Source of the DNA: Candidatus Aminicenantes bacterium
GTDB taxonomy: Bacteria > Acidobacteriota > Aminicenantia > Aminicenantales > UBA4085
DNA: 64,000 nt
Assembly (NCBI GenBank): GCA_003141555.1
Contig: PLMN01000012.1
Coordinates: 139,487-203,486, forward strand
Direction: 5' to 3'
In this document: one piece after another, positions 332 through 40,784 of the stretch
Numbering within the stretch: the stretch's first letter is position 1
Layout of the letters: each line of letters opens with the position of its first letter
Program-made: the position numbers and the translations under genes
Notes under the pieces: model-generated
Databases searched by the model: none
What the model saw: the letters and a program-made list of their open reading frames with translations, nothing else
What the model was told of the DNA's origin: nothing

Positions 332-400
332 GCGGGGCCTCCTTGAAAAACCTATTATGAATTATGGTGACAGGTATGGCAATACCAAAATAGGAATCAG

Positions 401-632
401 TGACAGTAACCTGATTTCCGAATTCATTTTGAAATTAAACGGTGACAGTTACTCCATTTCCGAATTTATCTCCTTTATTATCAACGTGAATTCATTCTAA
501 GAATTATTCAAGATCGTCTAGGCATACTTCGATTTGATGAAATCAGATGGACTCATTAGCTGCAATAAGGAAATCAGGTTGCTGGCTCGAATTCAAAGTC
601 GGGGAAATGCGGAAATCAGGTTACTGTCACCG
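401..632. repeat. AT-rich MITE-like element or operator array bounded by 21-bp perfect inverted repeats (GTGACAGTAACCTGATTTCCG)
   Basis: 401-421 is the exact reverse complement of 612-632. Degenerate internal copies lie at 441-467 and 569-594. GC content is far below the flanks. Confidence 0.4.
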
Positions 633-661
633 ATTTTAAGTAGTAGAATAGAGATCCGGAT

Positions 662-2212
662 ATGCGAACGATAATCCTATCGGTGATCTTTATCGTTGCC
701 CTATCGTGGGCGTGCGCGCCGGCGCCGCCCGTTGCCACCGGCTCCGCGCCCGAAATCTCGCTCAAGCTCGACGCGGCGCAGGCTCAAGTCGCCCGTGGCT
801 GCTATGTCGGCTTCAAGAACGCGCTCCGCCTGTACCAGGAGCTCTACGCCCAGCCCGCCCTGCGATCGCGCGTCGCCTCGCCTTACCTCAGCGCGGTCCT
901 GCTGATGATGATTCGCGAGCGCGAGGTCGGGATCCTCGACTTGGCGCAATACCCCAAGGCCGCGGCCATCGTCCGCGAGAACCCGTCGCTCGGCTCTCTC
1001 CTGCCGCTTTTCGACGTCGCCGACGCGCTTCCCATGCGCACGCGCGGAATCATGCAGGACATCAATCCGATCGCCGCAAAACGGCTGACCGACGACATCC
1101 TCGCCCCGGCCCGGGCCGATCTTCGGACCAAAGCCCCCCTGAACGACTACTACGCCTACCTTTATGTGGCGCTCTTCACGGGGTATGGATACTATCCCAC
1201 GCCCGAGGACGATTTCATCAAGGACCTCCTGAGGCGCTTCCCGCAGTCGATCCTTATGAAATACAAGAGCGCGATTCAACCGCGCCTGAACGGCGACGCC
1301 CTCCAGGCGCTCCTCGCGGCCGAGCCGGAATTCTATGAAGCCGACTACAACCTGGGCGAGCTCGCGCTCCGCGGCCAAGATCTCCTCGAGGCCGAGCAAT
1401 GCTTTCTAAAGGCCTACGATGGCTTTCGGGAATCCCCCCAGGTGACGGTCAACCTCGGCAGCATTTATCTCGCTACCGAGGAATACGACAAGAGCCTGGA
1501 CTTCTTCGATAAAACGATTTTCCTTTCGCCCGAGTACCGCGACGCCCTGCTCGGCAAAGGCATCTGCCTCAGCTCCTTGGGCCGCTACGGCGACGCCCTG
1601 CAGCCCCTCAACCGGATCGTGGAGCTCGGATTTTACATGCTTGGAGAGAGCCATTACTGGCTGGCCTGGAACTACCACGCCCTCAAGAACGACGCCAAGG
1701 CGGAGGCCGAGATCGAGGAATCGAAGCCGCGCCTCCCCACGAACAGCGAGGTCTACGGCCTCTCCGGCACGATCGCCCTGGATCTGGGAAAGCTCGACAA
1801 GGCCGAGAACGAATTCACCGAGGCCCTGAAATACAACGGGGCGAACACCGAGGCCCTCTTCGGCCTGGGCAATCTCAACGCCCTCAAGGAAAGATGGAAG
1901 GAATCCGGCGGCTTCTATGAAAAGGCCGCTTCGGTCTTCGAGCGCAACGAGGCCGCCCTCGCCGAAAAAATCGACCAGATCCGGAAATCCGCGTTGTCGG
2001 ACGAGCGGAAGGCCAAGCTCATAGCCAAGAAAGAGCAGCAGCTGAAAATCAACCAGGCCACCAAGGCCACGGCGCTCTATAATGCCGCGGCGAGCTATTT
2101 CAATGTCGGGTCACCCGACCTCAAGGCCAAGGCCGCGGAGATGGCGACGCGTGCCGCCGCCCACCCCCAGGTCAAGGAGAAAGCCGAGGCGCTCCTGAAG
2201 AAGATCAAGTAA
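662..2212 (+). CDS. Tetratricopeptide-repeat protein with N-terminal signal peptide (possible lipoprotein)
   Basis: The N-terminus is hydrophobic and contains ...ALSWAC. TPR-like repeats are present (YNLGELALRGQDLLEAEQCFLKAY, EALFGLGNLNA). Confidence 0.6.
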   Translation: MRTIILSVIFIVALSWACAPAPPVATGSAPEISLKLDAAQAQVARGCYVGFKNALRLYQELYAQPALRSRVASPYLSAVLLMMIREREVGILDLAQYPKAAAIVRENPSLGSLLPLFDVADALPMRTRGIMQDINPIAAKRLTDDILAPARADLRTKAPLNDYYAYLYVALFTGYGYYPTPEDDFIKDLLRRFPQSILMKYKSAIQPRLNGDALQALLAAEPEFYEADYNLGELALRGQDLLEAEQCFLKAYDGFRESPQVTVNLGSIYLATEEYDKSLDFFDKTIFLSPEYRDALLGKGICLSSLGRYGDALQPLNRIVELGFYMLGESHYWLAWNYHALKNDAKAEAEIEESKPRLPTNSEVYGLSGTIALDLGKLDKAENEFTEALKYNGANTEALFGLGNLNALKERWKESGGFYEKAASVFERNEAALAEKIDQIRKSALSDERKAKLIAKKEQQLKINQATKATALYNAAASYFNVGSPDLKAKAAEMATRAAAHPQVKEKAEALLKKIK

Positions 2213-2292
2213 AAAGCCCCCATTTTTTTCTTTCCTAAACACCCGTCCCCGTTCCGGCGTATCATTAGACGAGAACGGAATCCGCGGATCCG

Positions 2293-2838
2293 ATGGACGA
2301 CAACGAAATCGTAGCGGCCTGCCTGCGGGGCGAGAAGGAGGCTTTCCGTCGGATCATGGAAACGCACAGCGGACCGGCTCTGGCCCTGGCACTCAACATT
2401 CTGGGAAACCGCCAGGACGCCGAGGACGTTTGCCAGGAGGCGTTCGTCCAAGCGTACAAGAACCTGGCCCGCTTCGATGGACGAGCGCATTTCCGAACCT
2501 GGCTTCTAACCATCGTCTATCGGCGCTCCCTCGATCAATTGAAGCGGAAGAAGCGTTTCCGGATCGCCGCCGAAAGAGCCGGGCGCGAAATTTCCCCGGC
2601 TTCACGGGCCGGCGGCGATCCGCCAGCCGGCGTTGGTGGATTTTTGCTGCCGGATGAATGCCTCAGGCGCCTGAGCCCGAAGGAGCGGACAGTCCTTTGT
2701 TTATGGACGGATGAAGATCTCTCCGCGGTCGAAATCGCCGCTGTGCTCGGATGCGCCGCCTCGACCGCCCGGGTCACGCTCTTCAACGCGCGGCGGAAGC
2801 TCAAATCTTCCTTGGAGAAAGCCCATGCGGCATCATAG
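2293..2838 (+). CDS. ECF (RpoE-like) sigma-70 family sigma factor
   Basis: Region 2 reads ...DAEDVCQEAFVQAYKNLARFDGRAHFRTWLLTIVYRRSLD. Region 4 has the HTH ...LSAVEIAAVLGCAASTARVTLFNARRKL. Confidence 0.85.
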   Translation: MDDNEIVAACLRGEKEAFRRIMETHSGPALALALNILGNRQDAEDVCQEAFVQAYKNLARFDGRAHFRTWLLTIVYRRSLDQLKRKKRFRIAAERAGREISPASRAGGDPPAGVGGFLLPDECLRRLSPKERTVLCLWTDEDLSAVEIAAVLGCAASTARVTLFNARRKLKSSLEKAHAAS

Positions 2839-4584: not shown

Positions 4585-4593
4585 GGGAAAAAC

Positions 4594-4632
4594 GGGACGG
4601 TTCTATTTTCTTCGGATAACGGAACCGTCCCC
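4594..4632. terminator. Bidirectional intrinsic terminator hairpin between convergent genes
   Basis: GGGACGGTTC...GAACCGTCCC forms a perfect 10-bp stem with a T-rich flank. It lies between the stop at 4584 (+) and the stop at 4649 (-). Confidence 0.5.
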
Positions 4633-4648
4633 TTTCTTATCTTTTGCC

Positions 4649-6440: not shown

Positions 6441-6516
6441 GCGATCCTCCTTCATGACGCGGACGCGCGTCCTATATACCATATATACGGGGCCGAGGCG
6501 AATAGGTTGCGGCCCC

Positions 6517-6602
6517 GAAATCGGTGACACGAAATCGGTGACATGACCCAATTCTCTTAATTTGGGATCGTGTCACCGATTTCCTGCCGCGTCACCGATT
6601 TC
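6517..6602. repeat. Palindromic array of four copies of GAAATCGGTGACA (two direct, then two inverted)
   Basis: Copies lie at 6517-6529, 6531-6543, 6571-6583 (rc) and 6590-6602 (rc). A related copy is at 625-637. Confidence 0.45.
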
Positions 6603-6608
6603 CGCGCG

Positions 6609-40634: not shown

Positions 40635-40784
40635 CCTTTCTCCCGCCGGATTTCCGCCAACTAACTTATTTTTTGCGTTGCAAAATTCAATGTTATTTTG
40701 TATCGCCCATTGCATAATGCAATATGGGGTGTTTTAAATAGTGTTTATTTTACTTATATTCAGATGGTTACCGACGCATCCGCT

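Follow-up and report, generated by a model that had tools for sequence, protein, structure and literature searches.

Long palindromic intergenic arrays, repetitive extragenic palindromic (REP) and bacterial interspersed mosaic elements (BIMEs), and multisite operators are all known kinds of bacterial intergenic DNA. Multisite arrays of operators or upstream activating sequences (UAS) between divergent promoters act by phased cooperative binding or by DNA looping. In this study, we analyzed a stretch of 64,000 nucleotides (the window) from a Candidatus Aminicenantes bacterium (GenBank assembly GCA_003141555.1, contig PLMN01000012.1, positions 139,487 to 203,486 of the forward strand), in which an array of AT-rich inverted repeats occupies the divergent spacer between a peptidase S9 gene and a gene encoding a tetratricopeptide repeat (TPR) lipoprotein-like product. 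A previous reading of the sequence alone proposed that this segment was a miniature inverted-repeat transposable element (MITE), with a multi-operator array as the fallback. Our comparison with related loci indicates vertical inheritance of a cis element bound to this locus, and not a transposon. We consider a phased, DNA-level protein-binding array (operator, activator site, or insulator) to be the best reading of the sequence, at a probability of roughly 0.4. What is new here is the occurrence of AT-rich 30-bp units, phased at 42 bp, in an extracytoplasmic function (ECF) sigma factor cluster of a candidate phylum, conserved in place yet structurally plastic.

The array resembles operator and UAS arrays in having sites in two orientations between divergent promoters, whole-turn spacing, and one site at the -35 position, in conserving the sequence of its sites while the DNA between them is free, and in the recurrence of its core at a second promoter of the cluster. 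It differs from them in that its sites are ~30 bp long and not internally symmetric, that their number (1+1 or 2+2) and center distances (35 to 211 bp) vary, that the cluster encodes no regulator apart from the ECF sigma factor, and that related palindromes lie in promoterless convergent spacers. MITEs such as the Correia/NEMIS elements of Neisseria are similarly small, AT-rich, and intergenic, with inverted repeats of ~26 to 30 bp beside promoters, but the array lacks target-site duplications (TSDs) and dispersed copies, its interior is not conserved, and it is inherited in synteny. With invertons of the fimS type, the array shares inverted repeats that enclose ~180 bp of promoter-region DNA and a sister array found in both orientations in near-identical strains; unlike invertons, it has no internal promoter and no invertase gene nearby, and the loops of some lineages are too short to invert. 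Bidirectional intrinsic terminators are comparable in the palindrome flanked by A- and T-tracts, the use of terminator slots in other spacers, and a shared stem-base motif, whereas the array has AT-rich stems of 21 to 30 bp, a short U-tract, and loops that reach 190 nt, and it sits in a divergent spacer, where there is nothing to stop. Finally, BIMEs and REPINs (REP doublets forming hairpins; Bertels and Rainey 2011, PMC3116915) are extragenic units of ~30 bp found as inverted doublets with a variable spacer, alternating arrays, and singletons, which are hairpin capable, persist vertically at orthologous positions, form lineage-specific families, and vary structurally between strains, all of which is seen here. 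Unlike them, the window array shows no evidence of tens to hundreds of dispersed copies (none outside one cluster in 64 kb) and no REP-associated tyrosine transposase (RAYT) was seen; its arms are AT-rich in a GC-rich genome, its tandem spacing is a strict 42 bp, and its position relative to the promoter -35 is fixed.

Results

Architecture of the array

The S9-TPR divergent spacer (330 bp) has a GC content of 38% over positions 332 to 661 and 36% over 343 to 661, compared to 64.1% for the window, which bears out the earlier description of an AT-rich spacer in a GC-rich genome. The 343-to-661 region is the lowest-GC and longest AT-rich island of the window; other intergenic regions are AT-rich too. 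The 21-mer GTGACAGTAACCTGATTTCCG occurs exactly twice in the 64 kb, at 400 to 420 on the forward strand and at 610 to 630 on the reverse strand. This is the perfect 21-bp inverted repeat that the sequence-only reading had recognized, which it had placed one or two bases off (401 to 421 and 612 to 632). There was no third copy in the window even at up to 3 mismatches, and 0 of 100 dinucleotide shuffles gave two matches. With 2 mismatches, the inverted repeat found by a repeat finder reaches 30 nt (395 to 424 and 606 to 635, 93% complementary), giving an element of ~241 bp. The only open reading frames (ORFs) inside it are short, derived from the repeats, and unconserved.

For comparison, we gathered 140 related loci (L001 to L140, ~0.94 Mb) from 80 GTDB genomes, 39 metagenome contigs, and look-ups of individual homologs. 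The window array consists of two left direct units (L1 and L2), two right inverted units (R2 and R1), and a degenerate fifth unit (L0), laid out as L0-L1-L2 ... R2-R1 around a symmetry center at ~515, with a unit consensus of ~30 bp that reads AATCGGTGACAGTAAC-NNN-ATTTCCGAATT. The outer left unit L1 (AATCAGTGACAGTAACCTGATTTCCGAATT, 395 to 424, forward strand) contains the perfect core at 400 to 420, and the inner left unit L2 (437 to 466, forward strand) follows it in register at 42 bp. On the right, the inner unit R2 (564 to 593, reverse strand), whose outer half is degenerate in this genome, precedes the outer unit R1 (606 to 635, reverse strand; perfect core at 610 to 630) in register by the same 42 bp. 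The degenerate internal copies reported earlier at 440 to 467 and 569 to 594 thus prove to be real and in register with the outer ones. L0 (GGTGACAGGTATGGCAATACCAAA, 366 to 389, forward strand) overlaps the S9 promoter, at a position equivalent to that of the left arm in L097. Between the inner units lie an extra block common to the window and L091 in the alignment (TATCTCCTTTATTATCAACGTGAAT, 467 to 493) and a variable center (494 to 563) that has no promoter-like or terminator-like site and is nonhomologous in lineages other than L091. The repeated GAATTC cores noted before correspond to three sites in the spacer, at 420 to 425, 488 to 493, and 589 to 594. No Rfam family matched the window at the gathering threshold, nothing was found in the arrays of four related loci, including L091, L092, and L093, at an E value of ≤0.01, and a scan of the window for tRNA and tmRNA genes found none.

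Conservation in place and constraint on the arms

A fuzzy search with a 26-nt arm over the 0.94 Mb gave matches confined to this gene cluster, and units were present at the orthologous position in at least 7 Aminicenantes lineages. The arrays are of the 2+2 type in the window, L091, and L093, and of the 1+1 type with a 14-nt loop in L002, L003, L090, and L094, a ~33-nt loop in L097, and a ~95-nt loop in L092. The orthologous element of L094 measures only 66 to 74 bp. L002, L003, L090, L094, L091, L092, and L097 have the units in the S9-TPR spacer; L093 has another left neighbor, and in L040, whose TPR protein is 41% identical, a 1+1 pair is located between the TPR stop codon and the sigma gene. 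L004 to L007 carry a variant arm, GGAGACACAATACCTATTTCC, that is perfect over 21/21 positions. A 25-nt pattern that fits five of the arms had 0 matches in 185,579 GTDB species genomes, so the source species is not among them. Three matches of the arm in viral contigs were solitary, came from low-GC phage contigs without partner arms, and were judged to be chance; the variant arm had 0 matches in viral contigs.

The spacers of the window and L091 are both 330 bp long and can be aligned end to end, and their TPR proteins are 76% identical. In this alignment, L1 and L2 are each 90% identical, R1 is 93% identical, and R2 is 81% identical, compared to 42% for the L1-L2 linker, 60% for the center, and 60% for four-fold degenerate sites of the TPR gene. 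By this measure, the arms evolve several-fold slower than neutral DNA, which indicates purifying selection on the arm sequence. R1 is also identical at 30/30 positions to the right arm of L094, whose flanks are unalignable. The interiors are nonhomologous across lineages in either orientation, with the sole exception of the window and L091, which have the same orientation.

The element was inherited in place, given that the window, L094, L092, and L004 have a common geometry of the S9 promoter (-10, 17 nt, -35) and a left arm immediately upstream of it. Direct repeats of at least 3 bp were absent from its flanks at boundary offsets of 0 to 8 in the window, L091, L094, L090, or L004, and over 12 elements no TSD was consistent, the others showing only inconsistent 3-mers.

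Position relative to promoters, phasing, and pairing

The promoters named here are sequence predictions, made by promoter scan or motif reading. The right arm ends 12 to 15 nt before the TAGAAT -10 of the TPR operon in the window, L091, L092, and L004, such that the arm spans the -35 position, and it ends 4 to 7 nt before the ECF-type TAAAC -35 in L094, L093, L040, and the sigma-side slots of L097 and L090. (We use sigma-side for the slot between the TPR stop codon and the sigma promoter and TPR-side for the spacer upstream of the TPR gene.) Given these right-arm distances, with or without the TAAAC motif, the array is positioned relative to the rightward promoter. The window array is probably outside both mRNAs, because it lies upstream of both predicted flanking promoters, and its interior (425 to 605) contains no sigma70-like site and no TAAAC-N17-CGT motif.

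From one tandem unit to the next, the step is 42, 42, 42, and 41 bp in the window, L091, and L093 despite differing linker sequences. Across nine elements with independent interiors, the distances between outer cores (232, 65, 148, 84, 239, 127, 54, 76, and 63 bp) cluster in helical phase at 10.3 to 10.5 bp (Rayleigh R = 0.73 at 10.5 bp). The associated P value is ~0.005 for a fixed period with all nine elements, ~0.009 when scanning 10 to 11 bp, and ~0.04 for the six window-type elements alone, a statistic that rests on 6 to 9 partly related elements. The phasing is suggestive of a constraint at the level of the double helix.

As single strands, the arrays are predicted to fold into long rods (window RNA, -75 kcal/mol, z = -4.95; window DNA, -39.8 kcal/mol, z = -5.1; L091 RNA, -96.9 kcal/mol, z = -10.3). 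Across 13 left/right arm pairs, 85.9% of the cells are paired, 12/30 pairs have changed on both sides, and double-sided changes number 37 cells compared to 16 ± 2.9 in shuffles. The sole freely variable triplet co-varies in the outer pairs (CTG/CTG in the window and L092, CAC/CAC in L091). Recombination or template switching inside the palindromes can account for this concerted change without selection for pairing, and the flip of a second array described below fits such a process. L2 and R2 are each conserved, yet they pair poorly with one another (12 mismatches in the window). A conserved left/right asymmetry (...CCGAATT on the left, ...CCGCATT or CCTTATT on the right) stays unpaired in 10 of the 13 arm pairs, which argues for a constraint on sequence beyond mere pairing, and it is the arm sequence, not pairing alone, that is conserved down to L040.

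A second array in the same cluster

The 11-mer core AATCGGTGACA occurs 7 times in the 64 kb at ≤1 mismatch, compared to 0.78 expected, with 3 occurrences in the first array and 4 at 6517 to 6603. The latter form a second array, in which GAAATCGGTGACA is present twice in direct (6517 to 6544) and twice in inverted orientation (6570 to 6603), between the stop codon of an adh_short gene and the ECF-like promoter GCAAC-N16-CGTATA (6484 to 6510, reverse strand) of a LiaF-like gene. This second array is conserved in five other sequences. Its palindrome is found in the orthologous spacers of L129, L132, and L135, L136 keeps one arm, and the promoter is kept in these four loci and in L140. The window copy matches its orthologs better as the reverse complement (51/55 identical) than on the direct strand (44/56). 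In strain L140, the LiaF-like protein is 99% identical to that of the window and the downstream ~100 nt are identical, and the second array has the opposite orientation and another number and arrangement of units, with the window interior (6545 to 6569) corresponding to inverted L140 positions 31 to 55. We conclude from these alignments that the arrays flip and rearrange on short time scales. The exact sequence of the window LiaF-like protein had no match on record. At the first array, an independent Logan assembly (SRR7151610_3234, L001) ends at window position ~608, 54 bp before the TPR start and no more than 3 nt from the inner edge of R1, which a heterogeneous population or low coverage of the array could explain.

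Related palindromes and terminators

Other long palindromes occupy the same spacers in other Aminicenantes, including the L033/L041 type (CCAGACACATACC...), the L016 type (also 2+2), the L124 type, and the GGGGTCAAAcCT family. The arms co-vary within each sequence family, and some families are present in at least two spacers per locus or in nonorthologous spacers of different genomes. The L004-type arm, identical at 21/21 positions, lies TPR-side in L004 and sigma-side in L097 and L090. The sigma-side slot of sister lineages holds either a variant long palindrome (L090 and L097) or a canonical GC-rich terminator (L002, L092, L008, and L010); in L002, a close relative of L090, this terminator is GGGGACGGTTCTATTT...AAATAGAACCGTCCCC followed by T5. 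The window has a terminator hairpin, AAACGGGACGGTTC...GAACCGTCCCCTTT (4590 to 4635), in the convergent spacer between the TonB_C gene and a gene for a 333-aa protein, of a hairpin family also found sigma-side in L002 and L092. We also observed that the GGGGACGGTTCTATTT... hairpin recurs in different spacers (window 4590 to 4635, L002 4442 to 4495, L092 sigma-side, and L129 3384 to 3470). The canonical terminators of the cluster thus behave as a small sequence family as well.

Two further elements were encountered in these spacers. A palindromic element of ~91 bp, with 26-nt arms (GGGGTCAAACCTCAACATTCAACAAA) and a conserved interior of 39 to 40 nt, recurs several times within a locus and in different species (L031, 95 to 186 and 400 to 490; L014, 3228 to 3318 and 3534 to 3825; L068, 2144 to 2236; L093, 217 to 307; L114, 1654 to 1763). 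This element, assigned in L031 and L014 to the GGGGTCAAAcCT family, has the look of a genuine small repeat and is a better MITE or REPIN candidate than the window array. In L015, L031, and L105, the TGTAAAAT -10 of the TPR gene takes its -35, an outward-facing TTGACC, from a palindrome related to this element. The second element, almost invariant and ~70 to 75 nt long (GCTGGCTGGAGAGGATCCTCCTTAGCCCCGCTTCCTTTTCCTTTTCAAACCTTGGCGCC...CAGCCAGC, then a T-run), is located upstream of the TPR gene or past the S9 3' end in many Aminicenantes (L093, 385 to 455, and starting at L011 261, L012 3471, L014 3418, L015 511, L026 581, L027 713, L031 284, L098 483, and L099 2452); the window lacks it. In L014 and L093 it follows a consensus-like TTGACT-N17/18-TATAAT promoter. 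No Rfam family matched it at an E value of ≤0.01, and from its sequence it looks like a conserved small RNA gene.

Flanking genes and cluster context

The gene to the left is that of a peptidase S9 of the prolyl oligopeptidase family, and not of ribosomal protein S9. Its 5' end occupies positions 1 to 331 on the reverse strand (start codon, 329 to 331) and the gene extends past the window edge; the full-length L002 ortholog matches Pfam Peptidase_S9. Its predicted sigma70-type promoter (354 to 382, reverse strand; 10/12 match in the promoter scan) has the -10 CATAAT at 359 to 354 and the -35 TTGCCA at 382 to 377. On the right, the -10-like TAGAAT of the TPR operon (644 to 649, forward strand), which is kept as (TG)TAGAAT or TGTAAAAT in relatives, was missed by the simple promoter scan because of its poor -35. 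The TPR gene (662 to 2212, forward strand) is the first of a rightward cluster that continues with an ECF sigma factor gene (SigW-like; 2293 to 2838, forward strand), an anti-sigma gene, and a TonB_C gene whose product has two TonB_C domains. Beyond these, in convergent orientation, lie the genes for the 333-aa protein and then the LiaF-like membrane protein. By its TPR homologs, the window belongs to Candidatus Aminicenantes. In a single lineage (L004 to L007; e.g., L004 2640 to 4081), an AbiEii/AbiEi-like toxin-antitoxin pair lies between the TPR and sigma genes.

Motifs of the form TAAAC-N17-CGTA(T/A) are typical of SigW-like ECF promoters. Such a motif, TAAAC-N17-CGTATC, lies upstream of the sigma gene at 2236 to 2263 (forward strand), and in most related loci this promoter is strongly conserved as TAAAC(A/G)-N16-(G)CGTA(T/A)T. 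The TAAAC-N17-CGTA(T/A) motif is also present upstream of the TPR gene in many loci, and not in the window, L091, L092, or L004. The ECF motifs at the sigma, TPR, and LiaF-like genes likely define an autoregulated mini-regulon, as judged from the motifs. A Pfam scan of 36 window ORFs, for which we judged the best 25 of 52 families, listed housekeeping families only (Kdp, GH38, radical SAM, and others) and, among those listed, no transposase, recombinase, or Y1/RAYT protein. Elsewhere in the window, a short operator-like palindrome, ATTGCATAATGCAAT (40700 to 40740), lies in the AT-rich DNA that separates a sigma54-activator-type gene from a sensor kinase-like gene and is unrelated to the array.

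Discussion

We favor a DNA-level, sequence-specific role for the array, given that it is probably untranscribed, that its arms show purifying selection and a left/right asymmetry, that its units are spaced at four helical turns, and that its core recurs only at another promoter of the cluster. We hypothesize that the array acts as double-stranded DNA and that a single sequence-specific protein binds each of its units. In the window, the outer right unit sits over the -35 of the rightward promoter; in relatives, it sits 4 to 7 bp upstream of the ECF TAAAC -35. The left units are placed upstream of the S9 promoter. Occupancy and pairing of sites phased at 42 bp (four helical turns) could then repress, activate, or insulate the S9 and TPR promoters. 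We infer both the protein binding and the sign of any regulation. The arms may be kept identical through recombination or template switching within the palindrome, an idea that the inversion of the second array supports.

Several observations weigh against a protein-binding array. The ECF sigma factor is the sole DNA-binding protein of the cluster, and the arms are unlike its TAAAC-N17-CGT promoter. No element was found in L008 to L010, the left arm lies anywhere between 8 and 19 nt from the S9 -35, and the sample behind the phasing statistic is small. The inversion of the second array between strains with a 99%-identical protein is unusual behavior for an operator. Interchangeable hairpins are suggested by the sigma-side slot, given that it holds a palindrome or a terminator in sister lineages. 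Palindromes with the stem base of the arms also lie in convergent, promoterless spacers: that of L135 contains AATTCGGTGACGCGAAC...GTCACCGATTTTTT (a terminator with the stem base AATTCGGTGAC...GTCACCGATTTTTT, then T6), and the convergent spacer of L136 contains a solo variant arm of the L004 type. The arms thus grade into terminator-like hairpins, also where there is no promoter, and this is the principal argument for a REP/BIME-like or an RNA-hairpin explanation. By eye, we also considered resemblances of the units to dif/Xer sites, attC R/L boxes, sigma54 -24/-12 elements, the integration host factor (IHF) consensus, the ARG box, the Pho box, and the ECF promoter, all of which we dropped; the PurBox of B. 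subtilis was likewise set aside, given that ATTTCCGAA matches it but the GAA is unconserved in the right arms.

The close rival is a family of REP/BIME/REPIN-like extragenic hairpin repeats, spread locally or across the genome by a RAYT-type transposase, gene conversion, or template switching, that persists vertically and has incidental effects at most, with the 2+2 arrays being BIME-like clusters of alternating units. It would account for the coexistence of inverted doublets, 2+2 arrays, and solo arms, for the several families with co-varying arms across Aminicenantes (L004, L033, L016, L124, and GGGGTCAAAcCT types, some shared between spacers), for the switching of the L004-type arm between the TPR side and the sigma side, and for arrays that rearrange and flip between near-identical strains. 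REPINs are also reported as long-lived and vertically inherited (PMC3116915; bioRxiv 10.1101/2021.07.10.451892). We nevertheless consider this explanation somewhat unlikely, given that tens to hundreds of copies are expected of such a family, whereas only two core-sharing arrays exist in the 64 kb, both in one 6.5-kb cluster. No unit lies in the other 57 kb of the window (~45 spacers) or outside the cluster in the 0.94 Mb of related loci, the 25-nt arm pattern went unmatched in the GTDB species genomes, and no Y1/RAYT or other transposase is among the best 25 of 52 window families. An arm identity of 90% where neutral sites are saturated would, without a large homogenizing family, need selection in place, and neither the 42-bp spacing nor the helical phasing is expected of such repeats. 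Less probable still, and in our view doubtful, is a function of the palindromes as RNA or single-strand hairpins, either long AT-rich bidirectional terminators or insulators or 5'/3' stabilizers that shield the ECF promoters from read-through, with the divergent copy being an insulator or a relic. The arms are bordered by AAT(C/T)... and ...(G/A)ATTT(T), reminiscent of the A- and T-tracts that flank bidirectional terminators, and in codirectional and convergent spacers the palindromes occupy the place expected of a terminator, alternating with terminators whose stems begin with the related GGGGAC/GTCCCC, as the L135 stem base followed by T6 also illustrates. The predicted folds are very stable, the arm pairs show the pairing and excess of double-sided changes described above, and inversion of the loop would be neutral for a hairpin. 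The window array, on the other hand, is upstream of both predicted promoters in a divergent spacer that no known transcript crosses. A terminator scan found 0 terminator-like sites in 200 to 800, the stem there being rich in A+T, with a loop of 181 nt and GAUUUUAAG as its tail; more generally, loops of 100 to 190 nt with only 3 to 4 U after the stem make poor terminators. That L2 and R2 are conserved but mispaired, that one arm position is a conserved mismatch, and that sequence is kept to L040 are further difficulties for a role in pairing.

Mobile or invertible DNA fits the locus less well. If L1 and R1 were sites for an invertase encoded elsewhere, the 181-bp interior could flip and switch expression from the S9 gene to the TPR and sigma genes and back. 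The 30-bp inverted repeat, the variable triplet that co-varies as expected of a crossover core, the presence of the second array in both orientations in 99%-identical LiaF-like strains with identical flanks, and the independent Logan contig break at the inner edge of R1 (608) are in line with such an inverton. We judge it very unlikely, given that the interior has no promoter-like site to flip, the first arrays of the window and L091 share the same orientation, and several lineages have perfect arms around loops of 5 to 14 bp, too short for enzymatic inversion. No recombinase is among the window families listed, and the flipped segment of the second array is only ~25 bp, a better fit to hairpin-driven template switching. 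The MITE proposed in the sequence-only reading would be a nonautonomous deletion derivative of an insertion sequence, mobilized in trans and inserted here by chance, with 30-bp terminal inverted repeats, subterminal second copies like the ends of multisite transposons, a length of ~240 bp, a high AT content, and no conserved ORF. Terminal repeats, small size, and lack of an ORF are superficial criteria, and we regard this as the least probable explanation, at the edge of what is credible. TSDs are lacking at the flanks of the window element and inconsistent across the 12 elements, and no full copy exists elsewhere in the 64 kb or in related loci outside the orthologous cluster. The element stays at a single locus, and multiple lineages keep its position with respect to the promoter elements of the S9 and TPR genes, which argues that it was inherited and not reinserted; such synteny between the S9 and TPR genes is the observation that the sequence-only reading itself had named as contradicting a mobile element. 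Its arms are under constraint in place, and viral or mobile-element matches are limited to the three solitary ones judged to be chance, with no transposase among the listed window families. The multi-operator array that had been offered as the fallback fares better, given the promoter-adjacent arms, the 42-bp spacing, the purifying selection, and the nonhomologous interiors, while the related palindromes in other spacers, including convergent ones, speak for a REP/BIME-like family as a less likely alternative.

A more novel and decidedly speculative reading would make the arrays the DNA half of an undescribed, cluster-specific protein-DNA system in Aminicenantes, in which a dedicated regulator or recombinase-like factor reads bipartite, phased 30-bp sites beside ECF sigma promoters and switches envelope-stress genes as a block; we think it improbable. 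The block would comprise the TPR, sigma, anti-sigma, and TonB_C genes, the LiaF-like gene, and the S9 peptidase gene, and the factor would couple, insulate, or flip their promoters. The co-variation of the triplet and the flip of the second array would then be traces of site-specific recombination rather than of passive chemistry of the hairpins.

For annotation pipelines, a MITE label would be unsuitable whether the units are protein-binding sites or REP/BIME-like hairpins. If they are REP/BIME-like hairpins, they would be elements that have been long retained and sequence constrained at promoters while flipping between near-identical strains, and would bear on how palindromes become domesticated. 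If the arms bind a protein, as we favor, the array would be a phylogenetically footprinted regulatory module of an ECF sigma envelope-stress cluster in a candidate phylum without a cultured model, one that comes with a clear consensus, natural variants (1+1, 2+2, and two arm families), and the companion motif TAAAC-N17-CGTAT.

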